DNA from: Candidatus Dormiibacterota bacterium
GTDB taxonomy: Bacteria; Chloroflexota; Dormibacteria; Aeolococcales; Aeolococcaceae
DNA: 64,000 bases
Assembly: GCA_963709585.1 (NCBI GenBank)
Contig: CAVPXI010000014.1
Span: 32,001-96,000 of the forward strand
Direction: 5' to 3'
Below the pieces are notes generated by a model. That model saw nothing but the letters and a program-made list of their open reading frames with translations, searched no databases and was not told the DNA's origin. The position numbers and the translations under genes are program-made. Of this stretch, positions 18,391 to 39,752 are shown one piece after another; the first letter of the stretch is position 1, and each line of letters opens with the position of its first letter.

Positions 18391-18439
18391 TCGGGGAGAC
18401 AGGACTCGAACCTGCGACCCCCTGGTCCCCCAGACCAGT
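18391..18439 (-). repeat. att-like copy 1 of the tRNA-Pro 3' half
   Basis: Matches 39629..39676 apart from one extra C. Confidence 0.95.
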
Positions 18440-18596
18440 CCTCATTTCCCGATGAATGCTGAGTTCGATTTAGAGTAGTTTTATGCGGAATTGGTCGGAA
18501 TGACGACTAGTCCCTCCGTGTTGGAAAGCGCTGGAATCGACTGCAACTGCATGGAATCCGGGCGACCCGGTGCGGGTTGAGGTTCGCAACCAGCGG

Positions 18597-18923
18597 TCAG
18601 GCCCATTCGTGGTCGACGAGATCTCGAAGAGCCGGAAGATCTGTGGCGAGGTACTCCCAGACGCGTTCCATCGCAACACCCATGTAAGCGTGAGCCACCA
18701 CGTTACGAAAGCCGACGATGGCCCGCCATGGAATAGCTGGATGGCGTTCCTTGAGGTCATCGGAGAGCCGGCCGGCGGCATCGGCAAGAACCTCCATCCG
18801 TCGGACTACGGCGTCTTGCAGCAAGTGTTCGGCGAGAAAAGCTTCTCGGCCGCGAGCCGAGTATTGAGCAAGAAGGTCGAGGCACTCAGCGATGAAGCCC
18901 AGCAGCTCATTATCGGTGCTCAC
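18597..18923 (-). CDS. HepT-like HEPN ribonuclease toxin (DUF86)
   Basis: DAVVRRMEVLADAA...IPWRAIVGFRNVVAHAY (RxxxxH). Confidence 0.9.
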   Translation of the reverse strand: MSTDNELLGFIAECLDLLAQYSARGREAFLAEHLLQDAVVRRMEVLADAAGRLSDDLKERHPAIPWRAIVGFRNVVAHAYMGVAMERVWEYLATDLPALRDLVDHEWA

Positions 18924-19442
18924 AGCACGCGTGCTTCACGCAAGAAGTCGTGTACGAGCCCGGATATCCTGAATGCCCGCCTCATCGATGACATCAACGG
19001 ACCGTCGGACGATGCCGACGCACGCTTCCCTGAATTCATCGAGCGCCGCGAAGTACGCCGCGCCCTTGAGGTCGGGGCGCACGGTGACCATGAGGTCCAC
19101 ATCGCTCTCGGCCCGAGCGGTGCCCCGCGCGACGGAGCCGACGACACGAACCTGCTGAATACCACGCGCTGTAGCGGCGGCACGGATCCTCCCGTTGAGG
19201 CGGCGCAGTTCCTCGGTCGACGGCGGGGTGGCAAGCCCGGGAATGATGGTCGTCGTCAAGGACCTCCCTGTGGCGGTGGCGAAGCGCTCGAGGAAGGACA
19301 GCGTGTGCGAGGGTCCGCTGCCGCTCTCGGCGCGTGCGATCACGGATTGGGTCGTCCCCATGCGTGCTGCGAGAGCAGCCTGGGAGAGCCCGGCGGCGCG
19401 CCGGTTGGCGCGGAGCGCCACGTAAAGCGGGTCATGCGGCAT
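18920..19442 (-). CDS. XRE-HTH fused to MNT nucleotidyltransferase antitoxin (frameshift near the 3' end)
   Basis: GLSQAALAARMGTTQSVIARAE HTH; GSVARG...SDVDL; tail ...FLREARVL in the neighbouring frame. Confidence 0.85.
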
Positions 19443-19450
19443 GGAGCCAG

Positions 19451-19468
19451 TATCGCATATTTGCGATA
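19451..19468. promoter_or_regulatory. Palindromic operator over the TA promoter
   Basis: TATCGCA-TATT-TGCGATA perfect 7-bp inverted repeat overlapping -10 GATACT, 6 nt before ATG. Confidence 0.7.
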
Positions 19469-19698
19469 ATCAGCGCCCGTAGGTTCTGGACTAGAAGCCG
19501 GGGCGAGATACCCAGGTGGCATCGATGTTCCGGCTCGCCCCTGGCGTTCGAAGGGCACGTCGCCACCGAAACCGACCTTTCCGAGGCTTAGTCCCGACCT
19601 GGGCCGTCCCTTTGATCTCCATCGACGGATTCCAATTGTGGGTATGCGGCTCCGTGGCTTACCGGCCGACCCCCCATCCAGGCTGAGAGACTCTGCCG

Positions 19699-20247
19699 AT
19701 GGCCGACGTTCCACCTGGACTCATCTTGCAATGGCTGACCGAACCGAGCATGGTCAACGCGCGTACGCGCCGTCAGCTTCTCAGCTGCTGGCGCGATGTC
19801 GTAAATGCCGGAGGGGCGGTCGGCTTTCCGTTCTTGCCGGTGGAGGACGCGCAAGTCCTGCCGGCAGTCGATGCCATGGTTGACTCGCTCAACCCGCTGG
19901 TCAACCGGCTACTGCTCGCGACCGTGGGCGAATCGTTGGCCGGTTGGCTGCTCTTGGCTGGCAACACGGCGAAGGTCACGGCTCACTGGGCGCGGGTGCT
20001 GAGAGTGCAGACCGCCATCGCTCACCGCGGGACGGGCATCGGCCGGAGCATGATGACTGAAGTGTCTCGCGCCGCTCGAGACGACATGGGCCTCCAGCAG
20101 CTGCATCTGGAGCTGAGAGCGGGCCTCGGATTGGAATCCTTCTACGGCGCCTGCGGCTGGCGGGAGGTCGGCAGATGGCCCGCTGCGCTGCGACTGAGCG
20201 AAGACGACTACCGCGACGAGGTGCTCATGGTTCTGAAGTTACAGTGA
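19699..20247 (+). CDS. GNAT family N-acetyltransferase
   Basis: NAGGAVGF, HRGTGIGRSMM acetyl-CoA motif, FY..CGWREVG. Confidence 0.9.
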   Translation: MADVPPGLILQWLTEPSMVNARTRRQLLSCWRDVVNAGGAVGFPFLPVEDAQVLPAVDAMVDSLNPLVNRLLLATVGESLAGWLLLAGNTAKVTAHWARVLRVQTAIAHRGTGIGRSMMTEVSRAARDDMGLQQLHLELRAGLGLESFYGACGWREVGRWPAALRLSEDDYRDEVLMVLKLQ

Positions 20248-20358
20248 TGGAGCTCGACACTATACGCTGCAGAGTAGTGGCGGCCACCATATAGTGTCGG
20301 CAATGGCAGCAACGTGAGTCGCCAGTCGTCTTACGTTGCAACCATTTGGGCGCCGCCG

Positions 20359-20406
20359 TCGGGGAGACAGGACTCGAACCTGCGACCCCTGGTCCCCCAG
20401 ACTAGT
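20359..20406 (-). repeat. att-like copy 2 of the tRNA-Pro 3' half
   Basis: 48 bp, one mismatch to 39629..39676. Confidence 0.95.
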
Positions 20407-20690
20407 CCTCGTTTCCGAGAGCGTAACCGAGTTCAGAATGTGTGGTTTCGTGGCGGATTGGTGGAATGACGACTAGTGCAGGTGCGATGGAATCGATTGG
20501 AATTCCGTCAACACACACGCACACGTACTGCACATTGCTTCCCTCCCCCTCCGCTCTGTACTTTGGGCACTCTGGCGGCCGTCGGGCGCGCCGAGCCTCT
20601 AAAGTCCATGAATCTGGTGACAGGACACTCGTGTGAGCGACGCGGCTGTCCTTCGAGATCTCTCGAGCCGTACCTGCGAATGTAGGTGAA

Positions 20691-21197
20691 CTATGGCGGC
20701 GCCGACCCGCGCTGACGGAAGCGCGCCGGCGGCTCGACGCCGATCGATGGAGGACCTTGCGCTTCTTCGTTCACGCACACATATGCGGTCAGCCACCACT
20801 CCTCTCGCACCTCGTCGATCTCTCCCTCACCAACAACAAAGCAGGTGTTGAGCCACCGATACGACTCCACCTCGGTAGTCAGTTCAATGCGGACTGTGAC
20901 CGCACGCCGACGCCCGCCTGCTTGCTCATCGACGCTCTGGCCATGGATGGAGATGAGAATGTCCTTGCCCTCCCTGGTAGTGAGGAAGCCACGGAGGTTC
21001 GGCGTCCAAACGCCGTCGTCCCGACGCCGAGGATAGTTGGCCCATATCAGCGTTCCTTCGATGTCGCCGGTTACTTCTCCCCCTCCGTGGCCGAAGCCAA
21101 GCGCTTCCTCGCCTCGCTCGGGACTTCCGCCATAGGGCTGGTGCCAGCTGGCGCGGGAGTACTGCATCGTGATCTTGCAGAGCGGTTCGATGCGCAT
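20691..21197 (-). CDS. DUF3237-like protein
   Basis: G..TGDIEG, YRWLNTCFVVGEG C-terminal signature. Confidence 0.6.
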   Translation of the reverse strand: MRIEPLCKITMQYSRASWHQPYGGSPERGEEALGFGHGGGEVTGDIEGTLIWANYPRRRDDGVWTPNLRGFLTTREGKDILISIHGQSVDEQAGGRRRAVTVRIELTTEVESYRWLNTCFVVGEGEIDEVREEWWLTAYVCVNEEAQGPPSIGVEPPARFRQRGSAPP

Positions 21198-21441
21198 CAA
21201 TGGACCCTCCTTCGTAACCCGTTGATCCTGCGCCTCACGTCCCATTGAAAGCAGCGAGCGAGCCTCGTGAGTGAATAGACATCGAAGTGAAGGCGACGAC
21301 ACCTTGCAACGAGCTTCGCCGCGAGCGGTGATCGCGAATACCACGAGTGCAACTGTCACCCCATCCCGCGTGGCGGATCCGAGCTGTACGCGGGTCGCGG
21401 AATTCGCTGGTAGTTCAGGCGCGGCTCACTTCCCCCGGTCT

Positions 21442-22059
21442 TCAGTCGGCCGAGGCCGTTGCATACGCCGGGCGCCCGCTAGGCCGATAGACCTGGATCA
21501 TTACCCCGCTCGGAGTGGACCGGGAGTCGATCAGCTCGAGCGCCGTGTCCGGGCCCCTGTCGGGGAATAGCCGCGTGCCCTGGCCGAGGATCACGGGGTA
21601 GGTGAGCAGGGTGATCTCGTCGACAAGCTGGTTGTCGAACAGCCAGCGGACGAGGCTACCGCTGCCGTGCACCTGCAGCTCACCCGCGGGCTTGGCTTTC
21701 AGGTCGCCGATGGCTGCCGCGACGTCTCCGGAAAGGACGGTCGTATCCGTCCATTGCGGGTCGGTGAGCGTGGTGGATGCCACGTACTTGGGCTTCGAGT
21801 TCAAGGCCCCCCCGATGGGACTCTGCCGCATCGCCTCAATTGCTCCCCAGGAGCCGGCAAAGGTCTCATAGGTCAACCGCCCGAACAGGAACGCGTCGGC
21901 GCGCTGCATGGACTCGGTGAGGAACGCAGTTGCCTCGTTGTCGAACAGCGGCCCGGCCCACCCGCCGCGCTCGAATCCGCCTCTGCGGTCCTCGTCTGTC
22001 CCGCCGAGCCCCTGCATCACTCCATCGACGGAGATGTGCGTGATGGTCGTCAGTCTCAT
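21442..22059 (-). CDS. Dihydrofolate reductase-like (RibD C-terminal) protein
   Basis: SVDGVMQ, LFGRLTYE, VHGSGSL, PVILGQGTRLF. Confidence 0.9.
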   Translation of the reverse strand: MRLTTITHISVDGVMQGLGGTDEDRRGGFERGGWAGPLFDNEATAFLTESMQRADAFLFGRLTYETFAGSWGAIEAMRQSPIGGALNSKPKYVASTTLTDPQWTDTTVLSGDVAAAIGDLKAKPAGELQVHGSGSLVRWLFDNQLVDEITLLTYPVILGQGTRLFPDRGPDTALELIDSRSTPSGVMIQVYRPSGRPAYATASAD

Positions 22060-22081
22060 GGGTTTCTTCCCCTTTTCCAAC

Positions 22082-22140
22082 TAGTTGAGCTTTCAACTAT
22101 GCGTTGTAGTGACATTACCAGATTTGATTGAAATGTCAAC
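22082..22140. promoter_or_regulatory. Two MarR-type palindromic operators in a divergent intergenic region
   Basis: TAGTTGA-GCTT-TCAACTA (22082..22099) and TTGA-AATG-TCAA (~22128..22139). Confidence 0.65.
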
Positions 22141-22171
22141 CAACAGGCGGAACTGCTGGTAGGCTGGGGAT

Positions 22172-22687
22172 ATGGCCGGGACCCGGTGGCTGAGCGAGGA
22201 CGAGCAGCGGACCTGGCGGACGTTCGTAATGGCCACCAAGCTGCTGTTCGATCAGCTGGAACAGGAGCTCGACGAGCAGACGGACGTTCCGAGTCACTAC
22301 TACGAGGTCCTGGCCCGCCTCGCGGAGGTCCCCCAGCGACGGCTGCGGATGAGCGACCTGGCCGACCTGTCCCAGTCGTCGCGCAGCCGGCTGTCCCACT
22401 CCATCGCCCGGCTGGAGTCGCTCGGCTGGATCCGGCGCGAGGCCTGTCAGACGGACCGCCGGGGAGCCTTTGCCGTGCTCACCGACGAGGGCTTCTCCGC
22501 CCTCGAGGCTGCCGCCCCGGTGCACGTGGAGGGTGCGCGCAGGCACCTGTTCGACCAACTCGACGTTGAGCAGCTCGAGGAGCTGCGGCGGATCAGCGAG
22601 CGAGTGCTCGAGCACCTGGTGGCCGTCAAAGAATTGTCCCCCGAGGAACTGGGACGGCTCGGCATGCCCCTCCAGCCACGCAGCTAG
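22172..22687 (+). CDS. MarR family regulator
   Basis: LRMSDLA...SRSRLSH...DRRG winged helix. Confidence 0.95.
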   Translation: MAGTRWLSEDEQRTWRTFVMATKLLFDQLEQELDEQTDVPSHYYEVLARLAEVPQRRLRMSDLADLSQSSRSRLSHSIARLESLGWIRREACQTDRRGAFAVLTDEGFSALEAAAPVHVEGARRHLFDQLDVEQLEELRRISERVLEHLVAVKELSPEELGRLGMPLQPRS

Positions 22688-22783
22688 CTATCGCCAGCCC
22701 ACGCCGGGATGAACACATCGCCCACAGCAATCGGGTCGAACGCGTGCCACTGAGAGCGCCTTTGGAATAGGCGTCGACGGCAC

Positions 22784-22814
22784 CGATGACTTGTTCCGCC
22801 ATGCGTCGTCTCTA
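22784..22814 (+). promoter_or_regulatory. SigG/ECF56-like promoter
   Basis: CGATGA-N18-GTCTCTA upstream of the DHFR-like gene. Confidence 0.55.
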
Positions 22815-22856
22815 CCGGTGATGAGATGGGACGTTACACACGGGGAGGTCAGTTGA

Positions 22857-23456
22857 ATGTCTAGATCTGTGCTCTATATGTCGATGTCACTTGACGGCTT
22901 TATCGCCGGCCCCAACGACCATTCGGGAAACCCCGGAGGCGACGACTTCATGCGTCTGCACCGGTGGTATGGGTTTGCCTCGGACGCTGGGCCGACCGCC
23001 GAGACCGTTGATGGGTCGGGGATTGGCCGGCAATTTCTCGATGAAGGCAACGAGACGGGTGCGGTCCTCGCCGGTCGCAATACCGTGGAGCAGGTCGATC
23101 ACTGGGGCGGCGACCACCACGACGGCGTTCCAATCTTCGTAGCCAGTCACAGGCCGCCGGGATCGTCGGTCGCGAAGTACCCATTGGTGACGTACGTGAC
23201 GGATGGGATCGTCAGCGCGATGTCACAGGCGAAGGCCGCTGCAGGTGCCCGCGACGTGCTGGTCCATGGTGCATACACGGCACAGACGGCACTTGCGGCA
23301 GACGTGCTCGATGAGTTGCAGATTCACCAGGTGCCGGTGCTGTTCGGTAGCGGCCGCCGACTATTCGACGTGTTGCCGACTAGGGTCGAGTTGGAGATCG
23401 TTCGAGTGATCGACACTCCAGAGGCCACGCACATCCGCTACCGCATTGTGAGGTAA
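22857..23456 (+). CDS. Dihydrofolate reductase-like (RibD C-terminal) protein
   Basis: MSLDGFIAGPND, VHGA, PVLFGSGRRLF. Confidence 0.9.
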   Translation: MSRSVLYMSMSLDGFIAGPNDHSGNPGGDDFMRLHRWYGFASDAGPTAETVDGSGIGRQFLDEGNETGAVLAGRNTVEQVDHWGGDHHDGVPIFVASHRPPGSSVAKYPLVTYVTDGIVSAMSQAKAAAGARDVLVHGAYTAQTALAADVLDELQIHQVPVLFGSGRRLFDVLPTRVELEIVRVIDTPEATHIRYRIVR

Positions 23457-23843
23457 TGCGGCACTTCGGATTGGATGTCGAGGAGAACCTGTGGGCACAG
23501 TAATGATGCCCCAACGTGGTGTCGGTGGACGGCTAATCGCCAACGGGCTGCGCTTGTTGCGACCAGCCTCAACTCGAGATCCGATGGCCCAAAACTTCAA
23601 TGCCGTCCTGGGATGGCACACCGCCTCACGCACACGTACATGAGACGTACAAGCTAGGTGCACAATGCGCGAGCTTTTATCATCCAGGTGACACAGGGCA
23701 AGGTGGAACCGACGATTGACGATCGTCTTCAGGCGCGGCGCTGACACGGCAGAGTATCCCGCGAGCCTCAGTGAGCAAGTGGCGGTCGAGTGTGGAACCG
23801 GGCACGTGATGTCACCCAATAGCTTGTGCACCACGGGGAGTTC

Positions 23844-24413
23844 ATGATTCACGATGAGCCCGACACCTACATCCTCTGGCACTGTGCCAGCCTCGCGAGC
23901 AGTGAATACGCGTCCGTGAGCAACCGGGACAATGGTCACCGTCTCCAGGGGTTGACGGTCATGCCACTCGAGTATCGTCCTTGTCACATCGACTACGCAG
24001 TTGCGGTCGACGCAGCCTGGTCGCCGAACTTCGTGACGGCCACCATCACCACACCAACTCAGATTCGAACTCGTCATCTCGAGCGCGATGCAAATGGGCA
24101 CTGGCGACTCGACGGGGAGGCAGCGGCTTACCTCGATGGATGCACCGATGTCGACCTTGGCTGGACGCCATCCACCAACACGGTTCCGATACGCCGCTTG
24201 GACCTTGCAGTAGGAGACACGGAAACTATAAGCGCCGCCTGGATGCGGTTCCCAGAGCTCGATGTCGTCGTGAGTTCACAGCGGTATACACGGCTCGCTG
24301 ATGACTGTTGGCGCTACCAATCGGGGCAATACGACTTCGCCTTGACCACCGACGTTGTGACCGGGCTGGTCTTGGCATACGGCGACGACCTCTGGCGCGC
24401 TGTCGCTCGATGA
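23844..24413 (+). CDS. Putative glycolipid-binding domain protein (DUF1089)
   Basis: LDGCTDVDLGWTPSTNTVPIRRL, QRYTRL. Confidence 0.85.
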   Translation: MIHDEPDTYILWHCASLASSEYASVSNRDNGHRLQGLTVMPLEYRPCHIDYAVAVDAAWSPNFVTATITTPTQIRTRHLERDANGHWRLDGEAAAYLDGCTDVDLGWTPSTNTVPIRRLDLAVGDTETISAAWMRFPELDVVVSSQRYTRLADDCWRYQSGQYDFALTTDVVTGLVLAYGDDLWRAVAR

Positions 24414-24564
24414 AACGCAGCTAGGCACCAGTGACGCCACGGCGCGCTAGGTTCACCGTCCTGCTTCTGGCCGCAGCCTGTCTGATCGCAAGAGAACGCT
24501 AGTCGATTCGCCGACCAAGAGATGCCGGTGGGACCTCGCCGCGAACTCGCATTGCGCGTCCGAG

Positions 24565-24612
24565 TCGGGCAGACAGGACTCGAACCTGCGACCCCTGGTC
24601 CCCCACACCAGT
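24565..24612 (-). repeat. att-like copy 3 of the tRNA-Pro 3' half
   Basis: 48 bp, two mismatches to 39629..39676. Confidence 0.95.
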
Positions 24613-25186
24613 GCTTATTTAGCTCCCACTAATCGAGGTCAGAAATAGTGGTTTCGTCGGAATTTGGTTGGAATGACTACCAGAGCAGGAGTGATGGATT
24701 CCCTTGGAATCGAGTGGACATCCAGAACGGGTGAGCTGCTTCTGCCGTGCCCACCACTCTCTCGACTTTGTACATTCTCGTCGACCAGCGGCGGCTAGAG
24801 CCGGTGGCGCGCGCCATCATCTGACAGGACGCTCGTCTGGTCGACGCTCGCCCCCATCTAGGCGGCCCACGGCGAAAGCTGGGGATCGAGCATGGAGCCT
24901 TATACGCTCGCCGGGTAGCCGGCACTGTCACGCACTTGAGGGCCGACCTCCCCGCTTATGGCGCAATCCGTCGCGCCACATCAGCGAGTGGTCCCTTCGT
25001 TCGGCGTGTTGCGGTCGGTAACACGGTTGGGGGATTCGTCGCTTGGGACCGCACGCCGGAACACGAAAGCCATTCTTATGGGCGCGCTCGCCCGCGTACG
25101 CTTCGCGTCGACGGTCAGGGCGCTCCCCAAAACTGCTCTTCCCGCCCTCCGTGAGCGCGCTCGACGCGCGCCCTGCGCGCGGCGCG

Positions 25187-25606
25187 TCAGCGTTCCGGGA
25201 CCAGGAGCAACGGAATGGTTGTCCGGGCCGCGACGTCAGCCGCAACGCTTCCAACGAACAGCCTCCCGAGATGGTGCGGCTTTGGGAGGCCGAGAATGAG
25301 GATGTCCGTTGTCGAATTGAGCCCTTCATGCACGACAGCTTGGGCAAGATTTTCCGCGCTGGTCGCACGCGTGGTCACGACGCGGGTCGTGACCCCCCGG
25401 CTACGCAACTCGGCGATTGCGTTGCCGACGGGCTCTCTCGGCTCAGTGTTGTCGTCAAGCCAGATCGCCGTGTCGACGTTGGTATTCAGCTCGTCGGCGT
25501 GGAAGATCTCGACCGTGGCGCCACTCGCTGCGGCGAGCTCGCCTGCGATCCTCGTTGCTTCGCTCGATGTGTCAACGTCGACAGCAAGTAGAAGGTGGCT
25601 GATCAT
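25187..25606 (-). CDS. Universal stress protein
   Basis: HLLLAVD...ILILG...GSVAADVAARTTIPLLLVP. Confidence 0.85.
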   Translation of the reverse strand: MISHLLLAVDVDTSSEATRIAGELAAASGATVEIFHADELNTNVDTAIWLDDNTEPREPVGNAIAELRSRGVTTRVVTTRATSAENLAQAVVHEGLNSTTDILILGLPKPHHLGRLFVGSVAADVAARTTIPLLLVPER

Positions 25607-27524
25607 TCGTCGTCTCCTTCGCGTGTTGTGGCCAGAAGGCGGTGGGAATGCACCGCATGGACGTGCGCCTGATCAATCTCCCACGCGGCATCGATCAATC
25701 CGACATGGCTGAACGCCTGGGGGAAGTTGCCAAGCAACTCCCCGGTCCGGCTGTCGATCTCCTCGGCGAGAAGCCCGACATCATTGGTGAGGCCCGAAAG
25801 CCGTACGAACAGAGCCTGAGCACGATCGATCTCCCCCACTCGGGCGAGACACGAGGCGAGCCAGAAGGAACAGATGACGAACGCGCCTTCCTTGCCGGCT
25901 AGCCCGTCAGCGTTGAGGCCCGCATCACTCCGATAGCGGAGCACAAGCCCATCTTCAGTGAGATCTCGAGCGATCGCCTCGATGGTGGCCTTCATCCGTA
26001 CGTCAGTTGCGGGCAGGAATCCGACAAGCGGCATGAGTAGGGCGGAAGCGTCGAGTTCATCGGAGTCGAATGCTTGGGCATAGGCGCCGCGTGCGCTACT
26101 CCAGCCGCGCGTCAGCACGGCGTCGCGAATGCGACTACGCTCGATTGCCCACGCGTCGGCCTTTGCGTACTCCCCGAGCTTTGGTGCGAGCCGCACGGCG
26201 CGGTCGAGCGCCGTCCAGCAGAGGACTTTGGAGGAAAGGTGGTGGCGAGGGTCACCACGCATCTCCCACATCCCCGCGTCGGGTTGCTCCCAACATCGCG
26301 CGGCCGCGTCGGCGAGTTCCCGCCGCGAACCGCTGGATTTCCGGGTGGAGGTCTCCAAGGCGAGCCTGGTAACGATGCAGCATGTCGAGCAGCTCGCCGT
26401 AGACGTCGAGTTGCGTCTGCACCCACGCGCCGTTGCCGACGCGCACCGGCTTTGAGTTGCGCCACCCGGCGAGGTGGGGCAACTCGCGCTCACTCAGGTC
26501 GTGCTCCCCACCGACCCCATACATGATCTGCAGTGAAGAGTCAGCCCCGGCACCCCCACCCGCCGAGCTGGTCATGAACGACACGAAGTCGGTGGCCTCG
26601 ACCGGACAGGTGCCGAGATAGAGCGCCTGCAAGGTGAGGCTCGCATCTCGTATCCACGCATAGCGATAGTCCCAGTTGCGCTCACCACCGACTGTTTCGG
26701 GCAGCGATGTCGTGGGTGCGGCGACCATTGCGCCGGTTGGACGGTATGTCAATCCCTTGAGGACTCGCGAACTGAAGCGTACGAGATCCCGATGCTTTCC
26801 CCGGTAGAGGTCATGCAGCGCCTCCCACGAGCGCCAGGATTCGAGCGTGTCAGCGATCCGCGCCTGAACGTCTGTCGCGGGAGTTGGCTGTGGCGCTGCG
26901 CTCTCGACCGCCGCCCAACGCAGCGAGAATCCGACGTTGTCGCCGGATCCCACCGGAAAGGTCGAGTGCATCGTCGCGCCCTCGATCGTGACTGGCACCG
27001 CCGAGTTGATCGCGAGCTGGTTGGGACCGCCAAAGGTCCGCCCGCCCTCCTGGGTCATGCGGAACAACGGCCGAACCAGCCCATACTCCGGTCGCGGCGC
27101 AAGCTCCATGATCATGTCAACTCGTCCGGACACACCCTCCACATTGCGCAGTACCTCATGCGGCGCACGCAGCCCGAGGTCGTGGCCGCGCTGCCCGGCG
27201 TCGGCGGCCATGATGTCGACGATCCGTACGGTGCCTGAAGTCGGTCACGAACGTCGTCTCCAACGCGAGCGTTGCCGGCAGGTAGCGCCGTTGCACTTGG
27301 AAGCTCGTCACCGGGCGGAGTGACCAGTGCCCAGCGCGAGGATCCAGGATGCGCGCAAAGACCGCTGGGCTATCGAAGCGGGGCAAGCACAACCAGTCGA
27401 TCGACCCCTCGCTGCTCACGAGCGATGCAGACGAGCAGTCGGACAGGAATCCGTAATCGGCGATCGCGATGCCGTTATCAGGAGCGGTGTCCGACGGGTC
27501 TGACGGCGGTGACGTCGAGGTCAT
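25603..27524 (-). CDS. Glycoside hydrolase family 15 (glucoamylase/trehalase-like); frameshifts near 27240 and 26320
   Basis: IDWLCLPRFDS, AAPTTSLPE..GGERNWDYRYAWIRD, QLDVYGE, LLAEE..LGNFPQAFSH spread over three frames. Confidence 0.85.
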
Positions 27525-27528
27525 TTGA

Positions 27529-29599: not shown

Positions 29600-29929
29600 C
29601 GCTGCACCTCCTCGTGCCTGAAGCCCGCAGCCATCACCTCGGTCAGCGGAGCTGGTTGTGGCGACACAATAGCCACCAGCCATCGCATGAGTTGAGGGCG
29701 CCGATCTACCGAGGTACTCGGCGGCCGGGTGGTCTTCGGCCCCGAACCCACCAATGTCACCCTCGGCAACAGCTTCATCATCATCAGTGGCGGTGGAGGC
29801 CCCACCGAGGATTCGCTCACAGTCACCCTTGAGACGCCAAGTAACCCGGGACCGGGTTAGCAGCTTCCTCAATCACCGTTCGACTAACCGATCGTGGGCG
29901 CAGTCCTGAATGGTCACGGTCGACGGGGC

Positions 29930-32274: not shown

Positions 32275-32574
32275 TGGAAGTTCAGTAATCACATTGGGAT
32301 AGCGATCTCCCTGCCCAACACGATCGTGAGGGCCCCATGAGTTCGGGTGGCTGGGACGGATTTCCACGACGCCGGTGCATCCGTCACCACCCCTCGGGGC
32401 GCAATGGTCCTAAAACCTCGTCTTCGCTGCCGTCGCAATCGTCATCACCTTGTTTGGCGCAGCGGTGATCTTCGATGCGCCACTGTCCTTTGACATTCCG
32501 TTCTTCATCCTCTCCCTCGTACTCGCCATCGCCGAGATCTTCTCGCTAGGCTTGGTACTCGTCGCTCTGGTTCG

Positions 32575-32935
32575 CACGCGGGCGGAAGGTGTCTTCACTT
32601 GCGTCGACGTCTCACCCGCGTCCGAGACATTCGAGAACTTCCGGGGGTCCGTGGCGCACACCTTGTGATTGGACGTAGAGCGGGTCTCCGTGTTCGGGTT
32701 TCTGCGTGTAGCGGACGTCTCCGAGCGTGGTGCCGTCCGGAAGAATGATCTGCCAATCGGCGCTGGCCGCGGGAAGCAGTGTCCCGCGCAGTTCCGGTCC
32801 GCTGAATGTCCCGCCGGTCAGTGGAACGATGCGCCGCTGACCGGCGGAGATCTGGCCGACGTCTTGGGGGTCGCCAACGGTCGCTTCCAACCGGTAGACG
32901 AGGTCCACGCGAGGATCAGGACGACGACTGTTCAC
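32575..32935 (-). pseudogene. DUF3237 family protein, frameshifted and truncated
   Basis: RRIVPLTGGTFSGP...ADWQ; homology continues out of frame as DVDASEDTFR, then stops. Confidence 0.7.
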
Positions 32936-33061
32936 GGCCTCACTCCTGATTTGGTCGCGGTCGCTTTCAAGATTTGAGCGGCGATGCCAGCGGCCAGCGT
33001 GGTCAGGGCGGTCTGAGCGAAGGCCCGACCTAAGAGGCGGCTCGCCCGGGTCGGCAATGCG

Positions 33062-33697
33062 TCAGGCCCCTGCGATCAGCGACCGCGCTTCTGCCGGGCC
33101 GACTACGAGATCGTGAAGGTCCCCGCCCACCTCTAGTCGGCTCGACTGCTTGATCCCGCCGAGCTTCATCGGCTCGAAGCCGGCCGTCCGGATCAACCGC
33201 TCGACCACGTCGCTCCCACGGTCGTCGTCGGTTACGTAGAACAGAACGGCGGGTTCGGATGATCGGTTGCTCGAGGACTCGAAGAGATCGGCCGACATGG
33301 TGCCAAACGCCATGGCCAACCGTGCCCCGCTCGGCAACCACCCGGCGATCGTCTCGCCAGATGATTGCCCTTGTGGTAGGAGCCGCACAACCTTCCCTTG
33401 CGCGTCGAGGCCGACCGGGTTGCTCGGAGCGATGAGGGACTTGTCGCCCAGCGCGTCGGCGATCTCGTCGATGACGTCCTTCAGCACGGAGAACCGCAGC
33501 GCGAGGATGACAGCGTCGGCTCCCTGCAGCGCGCTCCGGTTGTCGACCGCCACGACAGCAGTCTCGCCGATCTCCTCAGCGAGCCTTCGTGCCGACTCGT
33601 TGTCGGCGCTGGAGAGCTGCAGGGCCTCCCCACCGGAGGCGAGCTGACGGGCGATGGCCGATCCGATCCCTCCGGTGCCGACGATGGCGGTGGTCAT
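33062..33697 (-). CDS. NADP oxidoreductase (NADPH-dependent F420 reductase-like)
   Basis: MTTAIVGTGGIG, SNP, AFGT, DD..AGFEP. Confidence 0.85.
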   Translation of the reverse strand: MTTAIVGTGGIGSAIARQLASGGEALQLSSADNESARRLAEEIGETAVVAVDNRSALQGADAVILALRFSVLKDVIDEIADALGDKSLIAPSNPVGLDAQGKVVRLLPQGQSSGETIAGWLPSGARLAMAFGTMSADLFESSSNRSSEPAVLFYVTDDDRGSDVVERLIRTAGFEPMKLGGIKQSSRLEVGGDLHDLVVGPAEARSLIAGA

Positions 33698-33871
33698 GAT
33701 CGAAACCTCCTCAGCGTCACCGCGCTGACGACAGGGGCTTGGGACCACGGCGGTCCATCAGGCTCACGGGGTCTCTGTGAGGGCTGGGGAACGGCGGAAG
33801 ATGCTGTCCGGACGATGGTCCTTGGCGTGCCGAAGTGCCATCCGGCTCCGACTCAAGCAGGGAACTCACCC

Positions 33872-34336
33872 TTACTCCTCGACGGACGGGCTTGATGGCC
33901 AGTGCGGGGGCACCCAGTCCCCCCTTGGGTCGATGGTTTGGCCCACTTCGATCAGATGACCGTCGGGATCGCGGATGTAGCAACGGATTTCGTATTGGTG
34001 CTGTTTCGGCGGCGTCAGGAATTGAGCACCCCGGGCGCTCCATTCGGCATACACGGACTTGATGTCTTTGACTCGAATGTTGAGGAAGCTGCTGACCCGG
34101 TCGGGTTCGGCAGGCGTCTCCAGGGTGACCGCAGGCTTGTCGTCGGTTGGGCCTCCGCCGACGTTGATGATGATCCAGCTGTTGGCTAGGGCGACATAGG
34201 TCAGCCCTCCGGGGCCGGAGAAGGCCAGTGCGCCTCCGAGCACTTCGGTGTAGAAGCGCCGGGAGCGCTCGACATCGTCGGAGACGATGAAGTGGGCCAG
34301 CACGATGCCCTCTGGGGGCGGCGGGAGCTCGGTCAT
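33872..34336 (-). CDS. VOC family protein
   Basis: HFIVSDDVERSRRFY...IRDPDGHLIEVGQ. Confidence 0.9.
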   Translation of the reverse strand: MTELPPPPEGIVLAHFIVSDDVERSRRFYTEVLGGALAFSGPGGLTYVALANSWIIINVGGGPTDDKPAVTLETPAEPDRVSSFLNIRVKDIKSVYAEWSARGAQFLTPPKQHQYEIRCYIRDPDGHLIEVGQTIDPRGDWVPPHWPSSPSVEE

Positions 34337-34339
34337 CTT

Positions 34340-34731
34340 CTACCTCCACTGGTTGGGTTTAGGGTCGAGTTGCGCTCCGGGCGCTCGTGAATGGAACACC
34401 CCACTGACCGTGCCTCGCCGGCTGACAAGTTCGTCGCGCCCGGCTTCGATGTCAGACACGAGCAGGTACAGGCAATGGGCCGATCCGGGTGACGCCCTCG
34501 TGATGTGGGTGCCGAACTGCACAGAACACTGCGATCCAGGTGGCGTGAATTGCATGACCCGGAAGCCGTTGTCGAAGGAGAAGTCGGCGTCAACCTCCAG
34601 CCGAAGCCGGCGTAGAACGCCTTGGAGCGATCGGGCGTCGGCCAGGGGATAACGACCGCCTCCAGCTTGAGATCGGTCGGCTCGCTGCTCGGCGACCCGC
34701 CGGGTGCGCTCTGTCCAACGAGGGTGCTCAT
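34340..34731 (-). pseudogene. VOC family paralogue, frameshifted and C-terminally truncated
   Basis: LKLEAVVIP..KAFY..GWRL / FRVMQFTPPGS..LYLLVSDIEA in different frames; DPDGN motif absent. Confidence 0.7.
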
Positions 34732-34945
34732 CCCGCCGTCCTCTGTCTGGTCCCGAAAGGATTGTCGCACCCAGGCGAATGCCTTGCACCTGAAACATCC
34801 CTCGCGCTCGGGGTTCGACGTCGTTTCAGCGCACGGGGGTCGAATGGCGATGCACTGCACGTCTCAACTTTTCCGCCCGGACCGCGAGCAGTTCGAGTTT
34901 CCTATGGTCGAGAACCCGAGCGGAGGGGCGCCTCGACACCCATGG

Positions 34946-35560
34946 TCAACGTTTGATGCCGATGCTCTTGCCTTCGGTGTATCGGATCGGCTCCTCCAGT
35001 GTGTCGACGAGGAATTGATCCCGGTCTCCGCGTTCCCATGCCTCCCTCAACCCCGGAGCCGCCAAGTCGAAGTCGGGGCGAATTTTCTTGAACACACCCC
35101 TCAGATCTACGTGGAGCTCTGCCATCGTGGGCCGGCCCCAGTACCAGTATCCGTTGTAGATCTTGAAGATTTTGAGTCCGGGCTCGAGGACGAACGTGTG
35201 GGGGATCATCGGATCGTGCGGCTCATCCGTGAACTCTTTGATGGCCAGATCCTTCTGGACGACCCGATCGGGGTCCGACAAGAACGGCCACGTGGCGCCC
35301 AGCGCGTCCCGGAACTCATTGATGTTCAGCTGAGTGTCGGTCGAGATGAGGGCCAATCGCGTGTAAGCATTCCTGAACTCGGGATATACGCTGACCAATT
35401 GCCGCACGAACTGATGCTCTTTGGGATCGAAGCCGCCACGGGACAGATGGAGCACCATTGGGTTGCCCCCCTGGAGCTCCGACAGGGATCGCCGCCGGCC
35501 GGATTGATCGGCGAGCTCGTAGTCGGGAAACGTCTCACCTTCACGGATGTCGCTGCGCAT
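34946..35560 (-). CDS. Redoxin (AhpC/TSA-like) protein, active-site Cys replaced by Asp
   Basis: FPDYEL, RGGFDPKEH, FLSDP, YNGYWYWGRP. Confidence 0.85.
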   Translation of the reverse strand: MRSDIREGETFPDYELADQSGRRRSLSELQGGNPMVLHLSRGGFDPKEHQFVRQLVSVYPEFRNAYTRLALISTDTQLNINEFRDALGATWPFLSDPDRVVQKDLAIKEFTDEPHDPMIPHTFVLEPGLKIFKIYNGYWYWGRPTMAELHVDLRGVFKKIRPDFDLAAPGLREAWERGDRDQFLVDTLEEPIRYTEGKSIGIKR

Positions 35561-35728
35561 GTGGCCTCCAAACTTCAAACGATCTGGTGCAAAGATCTCA
35601 CGCGAGCCCAGCCGATGTTGAGTCGGTTGCGCCTGTCCCTCGCTCTTACTGGACTGCGATGAGTCCGCTCTTTTAGTCGTCTTTGTTGATGCCCAAGGTC
35701 GCTGCAATCCCCAGTCGACGCGCAACTC

Positions 35729-36553
35729 TCAAACGGGCGGTTCGATGTCGTCGTAGATTCGGGCGGCCGCCAGCAAACCGTCCGGACCTCGCTCATAGAC
35801 GCTAATTCCAGCTTGCGGTGTCAGGTCATGACTGCCCCATCGAACACAGTTGAATTCCAGGGCGCAACGTACGCCGTCGTCGGTCACGGTGCACTGCTCG
35901 AGTTTGAGCCCACCACCTGCCTTGAAGCACTCGGCGAAATACGAACGCAGCTCACTCGTGCCATGGTGTAGATAGTGCGGACCGATCAACTCGCGGAAGT
36001 ACCCATCTGGGGCGAACGCGCTCACGATGGAGTCGAGATCTCCGGCGCTTAGCGCGGCTAGATATCGGCCCACAACGCCACTCAGCTGGGTGTTTGCCGG
36101 CTTGAGCAGGGGGCGCCTGATGTGACGCTGTCCGTCGACCGGCCATTGGCTGCAATAGGTGCGGAACACGACCGCCAGTTCATCAGCGGACTCTGCAACG
36201 ACGGCTATCGGCCAATCCACCGGCTGACCTGCGTAGTCGTCCAGGTGCGCTAGCAGCTCCACGACGGCCCGCCCGCCAATACAGATGGTGGCTACGGTTT
36301 CGATGCGGACGTGGCGCTCAGCCCACAACAATTGATTGTTGCGGACAAACCGTCGAAGCTGTCGATGACCGCGCACTTCCCCCTCCCGGGGGTCGTAAAT
36401 CGCCACTTGGCCGGGCCATATTTCTTCTAGCTCGTGAGCGCGCCCGGTCTCGAGGGCGTTGAAGTACTGCTGGACGGGATCAGCAAGGCCCTCGGACCGT
36501 CTCTGGCGGCGGGCGAGTTCAACGGCACTAACGAAGTCTGGAAACCATGGCAT
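35729..36553 (-). CDS. Tandem SnoaL/NTF2-like protein
   Basis: Two NTF2-like repeats; ends AARIYDD. Confidence 0.8.
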   Translation of the reverse strand: MPWFPDFVSAVELARRQRRSEGLADPVQQYFNALETGRAHELEEIWPGQVAIYDPREGEVRGHRQLRRFVRNNQLLWAERHVRIETVATICIGGRAVVELLAHLDDYAGQPVDWPIAVVAESADELAVVFRTYCSQWPVDGQRHIRRPLLKPANTQLSGVVGRYLAALSAGDLDSIVSAFAPDGYFRELIGPHYLHHGTSELRSYFAECFKAGGGLKLEQCTVTDDGVRCALEFNCVRWGSHDLTPQAGISVYERGPDGLLAAARIYDDIEPPV

Positions 36554-36616
36554 TTTGCCGTCCAGGGTACCGTCTCTTCTGGCAGAGCGATGGGACGGTC
36601 AACCCGCCGGCGTGGC

Positions 36617-37567
36617 TTACAAACGCGAGACGAGGTCAGCCACGATCTCCGCCGCTGGTCGTAGCTGCCTGGCGAGCGCGACGCTCTGTCCGGCCCACAT
36701 GGAGAGCGCTTCAATGTCACCGGTGGTGCCAACCATCGGGGGCGCTGGCTCGTAGCGGACGATTGCTTCGCCCGAAGCGAAGTGCGCGATGACATCACCC
36801 GCTCCGGGCCGACTCTCCAGAGGCGGGCGGCCCGCGGCCTCCCAGATCTCGGCCGTCGAGTTTCGGAGCGCGCGATGGGGCGAGTCCGGCCAATCGACGT
36901 CATAGAGGTCGGGGTACCACTCCGCGTCGGTCTCGACGGCGTTGATCAGGCGAGTGCGGTAGTCCTGGTGAATGGGCATCTCGTGGGCAAGCAGAAACTG
37001 GGTACCCACCCACGCCGCCTGAGCGCCTAAGGCGAGGACAGCGGCCACACCGCGAGCGTCCCCGATCCCACCGGCCGCGATCACCGGCACCGGCGCCACC
37101 GCGTCCACGACGGCGGGCACCAACGGGAGCGTCGCAATCTGACTCCCCACGTGCCCCCCAGCCTCCCAACCCTGCGCCACGATGACATCAGCTCCGCGGG
37201 CGACCGCTCGCCGCGCCTCTCGGGCGCTTCCGACCGTACACAGAACAAGTCCGCCGGCATCGTGGACCCGCTCGATGTAGCCAGCGGGATCTCCCAGAAA
37301 CAGTGACACGATCCGCAAACCGGCCTCCAGGGCTTGATCGAGGCGACGGTGCTGATCGGAGGTGAGAACAAGGTTGCCGCAGAAGGGACGATCGGTGAGC
37401 GCCGCCGTCTCGCGAACCACGTCTCCTGCCGGGTCGGACCACGTGAGCGTCACCATGCCGAGCCCGCCGGCATTCGAGACCGCTGCCGCCAGTTCGGGCA
37501 CCGCCACCATCGCCGCCAAGACAATCGGTTGTTCAATCCCGAGCAGTTCGCAGACCGGCGTCCGCAT
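36617..37567 (-). CDS. Nitronate monooxygenase family protein
   Basis: AVSNAGGLG, QGWEAGGH, AAGGIGDARG, AGQSV. Confidence 0.9.
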   Translation of the reverse strand: MRTPVCELLGIEQPIVLAAMVAVPELAAAVSNAGGLGMVTLTWSDPAGDVVRETAALTDRPFCGNLVLTSDQHRRLDQALEAGLRIVSLFLGDPAGYIERVHDAGGLVLCTVGSAREARRAVARGADVIVAQGWEAGGHVGSQIATLPLVPAVVDAVAPVPVIAAGGIGDARGVAAVLALGAQAAWVGTQFLLAHEMPIHQDYRTRLINAVETDAEWYPDLYDVDWPDSPHRALRNSTAEIWEAAGRPPLESRPGAGDVIAHFASGEAIVRYEPAPPMVGTTGDIEALSMWAGQSVALARQLRPAAEIVADLVSRL

Positions 37568-37628
37568 TACTGCCCCCTACCCTTTCGATCCAGGCCGTCC
37601 TCCATGCGAACGGACAGATCCATGTCTT

Positions 37629-38231
37629 CTAGGACACGTACGATGTGGGCATCGACTTAGCGGCGCGTTTGTTCCAACCGTGGAAGCTCGAGTAGTCGCC
37701 TTCGTCCCAGGCCCCGCGCAATCCCGGTTTGCTCAGGTCCCAGTCGGGGCGGAACTCACTCGACGCAGCGCACAAGTCGGACCACAAGTCGTAAAACGAC
37801 GGGCGTCCCCAGAACCAGTAGCCGTTGTAGATGGAGTGGATAAGGAGTCCAGGCTTGAGGACGAGCGTGTGGGGAATCATCGGATCGTGCTCGGGGTCGG
37901 TGTATTCCTGGATGTCGAGGTCCTTTTGGATCGTCCGAGCTGGGTCCGAGAGAAAGGTCCATTGGGCACCCACTGAAGCACGGAACTCCTGCAGGGTGTG
38001 GTGGTCATCGGTGGCGATGGTGACGACCTGGGTATAGGCAACGGCGATTTTCGAATAGTTCGCTGCGAGCTCCAGGTGCTGCTGGTGTTCCTTCGGACAG
38101 TAATTGCCTCGCGCCAGCGTGAGGATCATCGGATCGTCACCTTGGAGTTCACTGAGTGTGCGAACGATGTTGGTGTGATCGGGCAACGAGTAGTCGGGGA
38201 ACACGCCGCCTGGTCTTATGTCGGATCGCAT
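37629..38231 (-). CDS. Redoxin (AhpC/TSA-like) protein
   Basis: RGNYCPKEH, FLSDP, YNGYWFWGRP. Confidence 0.85.
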   Translation of the reverse strand: MRSDIRPGGVFPDYSLPDHTNIVRTLSELQGDDPMILTLARGNYCPKEHQQHLELAANYSKIAVAYTQVVTIATDDHHTLQEFRASVGAQWTFLSDPARTIQKDLDIQEYTDPEHDPMIPHTLVLKPGLLIHSIYNGYWFWGRPSFYDLWSDLCAASSEFRPDWDLSKPGLRGAWDEGDYSSFHGWNKRAAKSMPTSYVS

Positions 38232-38540
38232 GGATGACCCTCTTTCACTCGACCGATGCCTGCCGGGAATCTCAGTGTCGGTTGGGTTGGTCGCCGGGTG
38301 GCGCATCTCGCCGGGAGACCACCCGCCCTGCCACCGGCGTGGCAACTCCAAAGATTGCGCCACCCGACATGAGATGTCCATAGGGGATCAGAAGACCGCC
38401 GTCGCGAGGTGCGATTCGGGGGTCCGCAACGAGAACGGCTGCTCCAGAAGGGCTGCGGCGTTAGCGATAGATCCCGTCGCGTCGCCCGCTGTCTCAATCG
38501 CGTACTTGTGCAGGCCACGGGTGGCTGTCCACGGGCTTGG

Positions 38541-39302
38541 TCAGCCCCCGGCTGCGCGGCCCCCGTCGATACGGAGCGTCGCACCAGTGACGAACTTGGC
38601 GCGTTCGAGGTAGAGAACCCCGTCGACCACGTCGCTGACCTCGCCCACTCGTCCCAGGGGATGTCGTTTAGCCAGCTCATGGTACGAAGCCGGGTCGTGA
38701 AGTGGGGTCTCGATGATGCCGAGCGCCACCGCATTGACTCGGACGCCCCGTCCGGCGTACTCGGTGGCCAGAGAGCGTGTCACCGCCTCCAGCCCGCCCT
38801 TGGTCAGGGAGGAAAGGGCCGATGGTTCCCTTGCGTCCGCGTGCTCCACGAGGCTGGTACTGACGTTGACGACGTGGCCTCCACCCTGGGAGACCATCTG
38901 CGCGATGGCGCGCTGGGTCATGTGGAAGAACCCGGTGAGGTTGACCGACGTGATCGCCATGTAATCGTCGAGCGTGTAATCGGTGAACGCCTTCCCGATG
39001 TAGATACCTGCGTTGTTGATCAGCGTATCGATCCGACCGAACCGATCGAGCCCCTGCCGGACCACAAGTTCGGCGGTCTCGGCATGCGCGATGTCTCCGG
39101 GTATCATCAGCACATCCGGTGTCGCGGACGGCTCGACGGAAAGCGCCGTACCCACTACGGCATAACCCGCCGCGGTGAAAGCGGCAGCGATGCCTGCACC
39201 GATCCCTTTCGACGCCCCGGTGACGATCGCCACCTTCTTCTCCGCTCGTGACGCACCATGCTCCGGCTCTGACGCCGGCGTTGCGCTTACGGAAGATGTC
39301 AT
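38541..39302 (-). CDS. SDR family oxidoreductase
   Basis: TGASKGIG, NNAG, RVNAV, FVTG..IDGG. Confidence 0.9.
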   Translation of the reverse strand: MTSSVSATPASEPEHGASRAEKKVAIVTGASKGIGAGIAAAFTAAGYAVVGTALSVEPSATPDVLMIPGDIAHAETAELVVRQGLDRFGRIDTLINNAGIYIGKAFTDYTLDDYMAITSVNLTGFFHMTQRAIAQMVSQGGGHVVNVSTSLVEHADAREPSALSSLTKGGLEAVTRSLATEYAGRGVRVNAVALGIIETPLHDPASYHELAKRHPLGRVGEVSDVVDGVLYLERAKFVTGATLRIDGGRAAGG

Positions 39303-39628
39303 CGACGCTCTCCTTCACTCCTTGGGACCTGGCCGGGTCGCCGCCCTCAGACGTATAGGAGCTTGACACTCGGGTGCGCGCGTGTGCGTAGTGGCCATTC
39401 GCGGCAGGGTTTTGCGGTCAGCCGAGCCGTACGGACCACCCGACCTCACCTGGCGGTCTACCTCAGCGGTTATCGTCCGCCGAGAGTCGCGCGACTTATA
39501 GTGGTTTTGCAGGAAAGAACATCAATCAGGGAATGAGTACTAGTCCCTGCAAAGTGACTGATCCCCGCAGGTTGGAATCGGCTGCAACTGAGTGGACATG
39601 GCTTCACTGCAGTGGAAGGGGCTGCGAA

Positions 39629-39702
39629 TCGGGGAGACAGGACTCGAACCTGCGACCCCTGGTCCCCCAGACCAGTACTCTAACCATCTGAGCTACTCCC
39701 CG
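39629..39702 (-). tRNA. tRNA-Pro(GGG)
   Basis: CGGGGAGTAGCTCAGATGGTTAGAGTACTGGTCTGGGGGACCAGGGGTCGCAGGTTCGAGTCCTGTCTCCCCGA; full cloverleaf; anticodon loop CT-GGG-GG; CCA not encoded. Confidence 0.97.
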
Positions 39703-39752
39703 AGGCGCGCTCAGCGACTCTAGCGCGCCAGGCCCACGCGGCAGAAAATGCC

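Follow-up and report, generated by a model that had tools for sequence, protein, structure and literature searches.

The region described here lies on contig CAVPXI010000014.1 (hereafter C14) of GenBank assembly GCA_963709585.1, a metagenome-assembled genome (MAG, 88.8% complete) of a Candidatus Dormiibacterota bacterium. We analyzed a stretch of 64,000 nucleotides of this contig (C14:32001-96000, here referred to as "the window") together with C13, another contig of the same assembly, and compared it with other genomes, which carry G-numbers below. The window contains an intact tRNA-Pro(GGG) gene, and the 3' part of this gene, up to the anticodon stem, is repeated as a core that we designate O. 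The region belongs to a tandem accretion array, of which it forms the tRNA-proximal part; most of the integrative units are non-autonomous and similar to cis-mobilizable elements (CIMEs). Its landmarks are as follows.

39628-39703, minus strand: intact tRNA-Pro(GGG), the sole tRNA of the window according to ARAGORN (63.1 bits with the Rfam tRNA model).
39753-41300, minus strand: der (EngA) GTPase gene (Pfam), the first core gene past the tRNA and the fixed edge of the array.
24565-24612, minus strand: O copy 3, the junction of unit 2 with unit 3.
20359-20406, minus strand: O copy 2, the junction of unit 1 with unit 2.
18391-18439, minus strand: O copy 1, with a 1-nt insertion; the junction of the 32.4-kb unit 0 with unit 1.

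A repeat search of the window returned one four-member family (18378-18446, 20346-20414, 24552-24620 and 39616-39684), with start-to-start spacings of 1968, 4206 and 15064 nt. In the alignment, the block of identity covers 44-49 nt from the tRNA 3' end into the anticodon stem, and every copy runs in the sense of the tRNA, which confirms the three direct copies at 18391, 20359 and 24565 that a first-pass annotation had recognized from the letters of the window. Moreover, a 37-nt core pattern allowing at most 3 mismatches matched 3 times in the window versus 0.00 matches expected from 100 shuffles; O copy 1 escapes this pattern only because of its 1-nt insertion. Since its 3' part is the repeated core, the tRNA gene represents the attB site, or the tRNA-side attachment (att) site, of the array. 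The G+C content stays at 0.59-0.67 all along the left side of the tRNA and is 0.67-0.72 over the 10 kb on the right side, and the core flank on the der side is kept at 80-89% identity in 8 relatives. The locus thus shows several marks of tandem islands in tRNA genes (tDNA islands), namely an intact tRNA with same-sense direct 3' copies bounding each island, variable presence in relatives and a composition unlike that of the core.

The array continues beyond the window. A further unit to the left had been predicted, and an O copy is in fact present at C14:17964, 14 kb ahead of the window start, so that window positions 1-18390 are the right part of the 32.4-kb unit 0; a truncated copy lies at C14:13450-13490. 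C14 has four partial O copies plus the tRNA, all in one orientation. On the 212-kb C13 there are 17 partial copies (one of just 22 nt) plus a tRNA, spread over 200 kb and again in one orientation. The units in these arrays are 1.9 to 41 kb in size, carry genes on both strands and possess their own MarR, TetR and sigma regulators. Those of the window contain the cargo listed below, which was assigned with Pfam.

1-18390: right 18.4 kb of unit 0 (whole unit C14:18016-50390, 32.4 kb), delimited by the O copy at C14:17964, Pfam content and lower G+C.
18597-20247: cargo of unit 1 (1.9 kb), a toxin-antitoxin pair and a GNAT protein.
18597-18923, minus strand: HepT-like toxin of unit 1.
18936-19442, minus strand: HTH+MNT antitoxin of unit 1.
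19699-20247, plus strand: GNAT acetyltransferase of unit 1.
20691-24413: cargo of unit 2, encoding a DUF3237-like protein (weak match), RibD_C, MarR, a second RibD_C and a glycolipid-binding protein.
24716-39474: cargo of unit 3, a mosaic.

Units 1-3 had been described as carrying only cargo, and Pfam searches of the window ORFs (open reading frames) agree with this. None of the 69 ORFs in window 1-46.8 kb was assigned to an integrase, excisionase, relaxase or phage protein, and six-frame profile searches of the genome with PF00589, PF00239 and PF12728 (E<=1) gave nothing in the window. In the whole assembly, the six-frame search with PF00589 produced 13 matches, most of which adjoin another tRNA gene (Ser, Leu, Thr, Gln, Gly, Lys, Ala). 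On C13 and C14:1-72 kb, neither PF00589 (E<=1) nor tblastn with the cognate integrase of relatives described below (E<=10) found any match, and the best genome-wide tblastn match to that integrase has 30% identity. Matches to PF00239, the serine recombinase profile, are confined to C4. The excisionase profile PF12728 matched one 54-aa ORF at C13:174183 and none in the window. Among the 243 ORFs of C13 and C14:1-32 kb, one IS110 transposase is the sole recombinase or transposase, and six-frame profiles and tblastn detected no coding remnant of an integrase at the 21 partial-copy junctions of the assembly. The claim that the units are devoid of a recognizable integrase, excisionase, relaxase or phage gene therefore stands after searches of ORFs by Pfam, of six frames by profiles and by tblastn; the decayed int remnants that would identify ordinary degenerate islands were also sought in the units by six-frame hidden Markov models, and none was found. 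A tyrosine integrase in each island, a further mark of tandem tDNA islands, is absent here and occurs in a minority of the relatives' units. Like CIMEs, the window units have neither recombination nor transfer genes.

Two places on C13 may be mentioned alongside these searches. An intact IS110-family transposase gene (C13:147132-148391) is located inside a 3.6-kb unit, and C13:170885-174332, inside a 36.6-kb unit, encodes an ImmA/IrrE-HTH regulator and a 54-aa excisionase-like HTH_17 ORF; no other regulatory relic of an autonomous element was seen in this assembly's arrays.

The junctions themselves are highly organized. Read in window orientation, the array has the order X-[O]-P'...unit...P-[O]-tRNA 5' half, and the following arms were delimited.

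18440-18540, plus strand: P' arm of unit 1, with GGAAT repeats, a 15-nt motif at 18497-18511 and an inverted motif over the O/P' border at 18434-18448.
20407-20510, plus strand: P' arm of unit 2, with the motif at 20463-20477 and the inverted motif at 20401-20415.
24613-24715, plus strand: P' arm of unit 3, with the motif at 24670-24684.
18194-18390, plus strand: family-A P arm of unit 0, a sharply bounded, non-coding end block of 197 nt.
39475-39627, plus strand: family-B P arm of unit 3, with the motif GGAATGAGTACTAGT at 39530-39544.

Nearly all units have the P' arm in common; at 27 junctions the similarity extends over 72-123 nt before unrelated cargo begins. GGAAT occurs in this arm at +48, +58, +84 and +94, or 2.25 per 140-nt arm versus a background of 0.12. 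A canonical P' arm also closes the 90-kb integrase-bearing element of G008. The P arms can be divided into three classes: the integrase type, family B (about 150 nt long, to which the arm beside the tRNA of the window belongs) and family A (197 nt). All three share the invariant columns TTTTGC.GGAAA...CTA..CCC.G, which in integrase-bearing units sit just upstream of the integrase start codon, and the family-B arm is homologous to the 120-nt stretch between O and this start codon. The left flanks of O copies 1 and 3 had already been noticed to be homologous in the first-pass annotation. The family-A arm was aligned in 10 and in 22 copies and has the same sharp outer edge beside unrelated cargo in several genomes; for 8 of the 11 C13 copies, homology to the window copy ends at 193-226 nt. 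It contains a near-perfect palindrome of 36-40 bp, GGGGAATGATGCCTTTTGC-TGG-AAAAGCCATCATTCCC.

The 15-nt motif GGAATGAnnACTAGT has 44 matches in the arrays, versus 13 matches in the remaining 3.2 Mb. Of the 44, 40 are no more than 220 nt away from an anchored O, and another 3 are located at an O that was not picked up by the anchor. Its offsets are fixed at +57, at -99 and, inverted over the O/P' border, at -6. Because the inverted copy resembles the tRNA's own sequence at that place, GGAATGAnnACTAGT may be read as a copy of a putative core-type binding site, to which the integrase would bind. The family-A arm is likewise a candidate for protein-binding DNA. Other roles for this arm were considered and rejected. 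As a structured RNA, it gave no Rfam match (at the gathering score, the tRNA is the only match in the window) and nothing meaningful at E<=1 in 17900-18700. In the RNAalifold consensus fold of 22 copies, covariation contributes -0.29 kcal/mol, and on visual inspection the changes in three copies disrupt the long hairpin more often than they compensate. As for a peptide, at least two copies carry a frameshift in the arm's 23-codon ORF.

We further searched relatives with a 142-nt query consisting of the P-arm end, O and the P' arm. All 24 sampled genomes of the same genus yielded 2-13 matches. Of 16 genomes from the sister family, 15 matched, 11 of them exactly once, at the O segment; G027 and G036, flagged as unpublished, are counted in this tally. 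G019, a single contig of 3.34 Mb, has the tRNA at 2177129. Ten partial copies follow it within 70 kb, and an eleventh lies at 2330517. In this genome, G019:2205410-2206408 encodes a tyrosine integrase of 332 aa that starts 122 nt past an internal partial O at 2205244; the gene lies within a unit, past the fifth partial O copy from the tRNA. In G008, a homologue of 345 aa begins some 85-125 nt past the intact tRNA; the exact distance depends on which start codon is used. Of 42 genus genomes, 8 have a homologue of 87-100% identity, always with an open frame, and the other 34 have none; five of the eight adjoin a tRNA-type match, one is internal and two are unplaced. PF00589 is the sole Pfam domain of the 332-aa protein, XerA and XerD are its nearest solved structures, and its closest relatives in a species-representative collection are all from Dormibacterota. 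In G008 the integrase heads the first unit, a plasmid-like element of 90 kb with a Cro-like regulator, an AAA_30/RecD/TraI-like helicase and ParA, and in G019 it heads a 7.6-kb cargo island that also encodes an aldehyde dehydrogenase, a Crp-like regulator and a sigma-70 factor. Also common in the genus (G043, G021, G023, G001, G020, G006, G041, G016 and G055) is another integrase lineage, which shares about 40% identity with the tRNA-Pro integrase; its open frames measure 343-448 aa.

The first-pass annotation had proposed an integron-like gene-capture platform that uses tRNA-derived att sites in place of attC and is served by a trans-acting integrase. In a true platform of this kind, a dedicated integrase fixed beside the tRNA would capture promoterless cassettes at a primary site, and a platform promoter would express them. 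The conserved cassette ends would suit such a platform, as would the five of eight integrase genes that adjoin a tRNA-type match. We nevertheless regard it as highly improbable and could not uphold this part of the annotation, since the integrases belong to units: that of G019 lies inside one, that of G008 heads an element with its own helicase and ParA, no integrase is present in the units next to the tRNA on C14, on C13 and in G012, and none was found fixed to a platform. Moreover, the sites are direct tRNA repeats with no conserved structure supported, not attC-type hairpins, and the units are multigene, use both strands and bring their own regulators. The rest of the proposal, related non-autonomous units stacked at tRNA-derived att sites, agrees with the variable content and with the lack of integrase remnants.

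The units were also compared with those of relatives. Unit 1 is nearly complete at 94-95% identity in three other species (G057, G052 and G009), whose 5.7-kb core flank shows 80-84% identity to this genome; such units are far more identical than the core genome. It is bounded by O on both sides in G057 and G052, and in G052 homology starts exactly at the first base of one O and stops exactly at the last base of the following O. The G009 contig starts inside the unit and therefore shows only the O on the tRNA side. The left and right neighbours of unit 1 differ in all four genomes. Unit 2 occurs in relatives in pieces only. The tRNA-proximal 5.1 kb of unit 3 (34361-39480) recurs at 94-97% identity in G012, G010, G023 and C13. 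In G012 it is 97% identical and also adjoins the tRNA, with the neighbouring core at 85%; in G010 it is 94% identical at rank 4 from the tRNA; and on C13 it is 97% identical at rank 2, with an integrase-less unit of 12.7 kb on its tRNA side. We also searched assembled metagenome contigs (Logan) for junctions over window 16000-27000. Soil-metagenome contigs from four runs of one study join units 1 and 2 through O to a different unit, which is the same neighbour as in G052 and G009. The content of the array, which was to be checked across relatives, thus varies strongly and is not fixed.

These features can be combined into a mechanism. One element family would have inserted serially into the 3' half of tRNA-Pro(GGG), with a crossover likely in or near the anticodon loop, and each insertion would regenerate the tRNA, while a partial copy O would remain at the distal end of the incoming unit. 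The enzyme would be the compact Xer-like tyrosine integrase, carried by a minority of the elements and predicted to be catalytic. The four units in and around the window would be non-autonomous and CIME-like, having no recombinase and keeping O and motif-bearing arms. They may be excised, moved and integrated by an integrase supplied in trans from a co-resident element, or they may be carried along when a neighbouring autonomous element excises through outer O sites. Supply in trans is plausible because the cognate integrase is present in 8 of 42 genus genomes and adjoins the repeat or the tRNA where it was placed. On the sequence evidence, the window units are probably still substrates of such an integrase, or hitch-hikers on composite excision, because their ends are conserved (fixed motif positions and a common sharp boundary beside varied cargo), because their arms are homologous to the integrase-proximal arm, and because discrete units recur across species with exact O boundaries.

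Several observations limit this reading. The cognate integrase is absent from this assembly, and no source for its action in trans was found there. Neither an excised circle nor an empty site was seen in the contigs searched, which are assembled ones only, and none of the joints listed for the Logan contigs skips unit 1 or unit 2 from O to O. The sole backward joint, 20398 -> 18382 (run X2, 36 letters on the shorter side), lies in the repeats and does not have the geometry expected of a circle; we count the contig joints neither for nor against excision. The P arms of units 1 and 2 are without the shared P-arm motif, so not every unit has both conserved ends; apart from this motif, the att sites and arms are related to those of the autonomous element, as in CIMEs. 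Unit 3 is a mosaic with a recurrent breakpoint at 34361, and the whole unit is found in no other genome; since no att relic was seen at this breakpoint, other recombination also reshapes the units. In G019, 136 nt of a decayed integrase gene (87.5% identity) are joined directly to a truncated P' arm; this represents a deleted junction. In addition, RecA-dependent exchange could use the 75-nt tRNA and the junctions of 150-350 nt as portable homology and would then produce the same discontinuities in identity. Finally, C13 may derive from a second, co-binned population, because its der fragment is 85-87% identical to der on C14.

At the remnant of G019 (G019:C1:2324478-2324585), the integrase N-terminus is fused to a P' arm that begins about 40 nt in, and two units have been merged. 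Such junction deletion is the probable reason for the very long units that have no internal repeats. When the remnant region of G019 was compared by blastn (word size 7) with window 17700-18440, only cargo homology was found.

The main rival explanation starts from this kind of decay. It takes the units as fixed islands that were once autonomous, lost their integrase by deletion and no longer move site-specifically; they would spread by DNA uptake and RecA-dependent exchange, with the invariant tRNA, the O copies and the arms of 80-90% similarity as homology. We consider this rather doubtful, while giving it real weight. It would account for the G019 remnant, for the mosaic structure of unit 3 with breakpoints outside att sites, for the GH15 gene of that unit lying in three ORFs and for the absence of the cognate integrase in 34 of 42 genus genomes, and, as expected of deletion derivatives, the P arms without an integrase show homology to the sequence that precedes the integrase gene. 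Against it, unit 1 of G052 shares just the 48-nt O with its new surroundings, a poor substrate for homologous recombination. The sharp outer boundary of the family-A arm beside unrelated cargo (8 of 11 C13 copies and several genomes) and the offsets of the 15-nt motif, which are fixed at nearly all junctions, fit selection on cis-acting sites better than drift in dead scars, and the 21 partial-copy junctions of this assembly hold no coding remnant of an integrase.

Another possibility is that repeats and order arose from collapsed or chimeric metagenome assembly or from binning. The end of C13 consists of a second tRNA-Pro(GGG) and, beyond it, 563 nt of der with 85-87% identity to the C14 gene. 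C13:211509-212147 corresponds to window 39628-40268, that is, the second tRNA-Pro(GGG) and the start of der, and G008 also has a second der copy, of 2 kb, on its contig C3. Such second copies indicate either that the array assembles as two haplotypes or populations or that the locus is duplicated. The genome is a MAG in which two populations may have been mixed, and repeats of 150-350 nt are prone to misjoins. An artefact is scarcely credible, however, since the same architecture is found in the single-contig G019 and in other assemblies of few contigs, the O boundaries of unit 1 are identical in independent assemblies, and the junctions are covered by metagenome contigs from the four runs. 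The origin of C13 leaves the content of the window unaffected.

The cargo of unit 0 includes ABC transporters, cytochrome b/Rieske proteins, a cytochrome bd-like protein, Usp and PCP_red-domain proteins, together with an aldose epimerase, TetR and a Flp pilin. The genes for cytochrome b, the Rieske protein and the cytochrome bd-like subunit form a cluster of unusual combination at window 3959-11490, which also encodes proteins joining Usp, rubredoxin-like and repeated PCP_red domains. Unit 3 encodes Usp, a broken GH15, Pyr_redox, glyoxalases, an epoxide hydrolase, an F420 oxidoreductase, two AhpC proteins, SnoaL, NMO and SDR. The GH15/trehalase-like gene (window 25603-27524) occupies three overlapping ORFs, TREH_N and two GH15 pieces, and this split is most likely due to frameshifts; its C13 homologue (locus L036:15935-17879) is called as two ORFs. 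On C13 the cargo comprises a NiFe hydrogenase cluster, pyruvate:ferredoxin oxidoreductase, aldehyde dehydrogenase, G6PD/6PGD and P-type ATPases, besides numerous regulators and stress proteins. In the 41-kb unit of C13, the NiFe-hydrogenase-like cluster (C13:28987-33652 and neighbours, with Fer4_22, NAD_binding_1, Oxidored_q6 and NiFeSe_Hases) is accompanied by pyruvate:ferredoxin oxidoreductase, aldehyde dehydrogenase, GAPDH and malic enzyme, so central modules of energy metabolism are located on a putatively mobile unit.

A more far-reaching interpretation, which we hold as tentative, is a cassette system. The genus would keep a reservoir of accessory genes of 50-200 kb at tRNA-Pro(GGG), made of recombinase-less units of 2-40 kb with standard ends (O, three phased 15-nt motifs and a 197-nt arm), which would be excised, exchanged between species and re-inserted through the integrase of a transient plasmid-like helper. 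If so, most cells would hold the library without the enzyme, and an integron-like capture of genes would have arisen independently through tRNA-derived sites.

Dormibacterota are abundant and uncultured, and to our knowledge they are known only from metagenomes. Full-text literature searches returned no description of Dormibacterota mobile elements or of this tRNA-Pro locus. Dormibacterota and integrase co-occurred only incidentally, as judged from the listing, and the broader full-text literature on tandem tRNA islands without integrase gave nothing on Dormibacterota. In this genus the array is apparently the chief hypervariable locus, and because whole metabolic modules are present on C13, it is a likely route by which these soil bacteria exchange adaptive functions. 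With a small integrase, a 48-nt core, motif-bearing arms and a 1.9-kb unit found across species, its clean anatomy offers a testable system for the mobilization of recombinase-less units. In practice, island finders that demand an integrase per island would miss the entire array, and arrays of such a kind fragment MAG assemblies.

The closest precedents are the ssrA islands of Dehalococcoides and the tycheposon islands. The hosts Dehalococcoides and Dormibacterota have both been placed in or near the Chloroflexi group. The array and the ssrA islands are alike in tandem stacking, in closure by a repeat and in the many units without an integrase. In excerpts of McMurdie et al. 2011 (PMC3146451), many ssrA islands follow one another head-to-tail downstream of a single small-RNA gene, and a direct repeat of that gene's 3' end closes each island; extra conserved bases stand beside the repeat, and the content differs by strain. 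Sixteen islands have an integration module and 15 have none, the latter being proposed as cis-mobilizable elements moved by accretion (PMC3146451). According to the same excerpts, their target is a tmRNA with a 20-bp T-loop repeat and their enzyme is a CcrB-like serine recombinase in a six-gene module, whereas here the target is tRNA-Pro(GGG) with 44-49 nt reaching to the anticodon stem, and relatives encode a 332-aa Xer-like tyrosine recombinase. The ssrA site and the DsiB serine recombinase that define the Dehalococcoides system are accordingly not found here, where the target is a tRNA-Pro and PF00239 matches occur only on C4. Compared with these islands as excerpted, every unit of this assembly is without the enzyme, and the arms are longer (about 100 nt and 150-200 nt) and bear a repeated motif.

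CIMEs are att-flanked units without recombination or transfer genes that lie in tandem with related autonomous elements and have related arms. Those described occur singly or a few per site and were experimentally shown to excise through the integrase of an integrative and conjugative element (ICE). The window units resemble them in att flanks that look functional, in the absence of recombination and transfer genes and in arms related to an integrase-bearing element; they differ in forming rows of up to 17, in being known from sequence alone and in the absence of a helper in the same assembly. Accretion and mobilization of the Streptococcus ICESt1/CIME type are cited within the excerpts of PMC3146451.

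Tycheposon islands of Prochlorococcus, in the available portion of bioRxiv 10.1101/2020.12.28.424599, are additive and lie at few tRNA genes, new elements pushing older ones outward, with scattered partial tRNAs, fragmented integrases and adaptive metabolic cargo. Tycheposons were found there by screening for elements that carry integrases, and they share integration and replication modules (bioRxiv 10.1101/2020.12.28.424599). As far as that portion goes, the likeness is limited to the island architecture, most units here being cleanly bounded and integrase-less. Islander (Hudson et al., PMC4383910), in the parts of the article at hand, delimits an island by an intact tDNA and a same-sense 3' fragment and recognizes anticodon-centred sites as a class; it requires an integrase per island and lists 125 tandems of at least two and 4 tandems of at least three among 3919 islands. 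By the rule given in those parts, none of the units here would be called.

With integrons the array has in common recombinase-less units, conserved ends, one site and presumably one tyrosine recombinase. It differs from them in having no intI/attI/Pc platform (no integrase is found in the window, and that of G019 is inside a unit) and no attC imperfect palindromes of conserved structure, the junctions being direct repeats of tRNA identity. Integron cassettes are mostly single promoterless genes in one orientation, unlike the multigene units of 1.9-41 kb with their own regulators, and the repeat here is a tRNA sequence that restores the target gene. The array is a large, well-preserved case of a known mode of collecting foreign genes, in a little-studied phylum.

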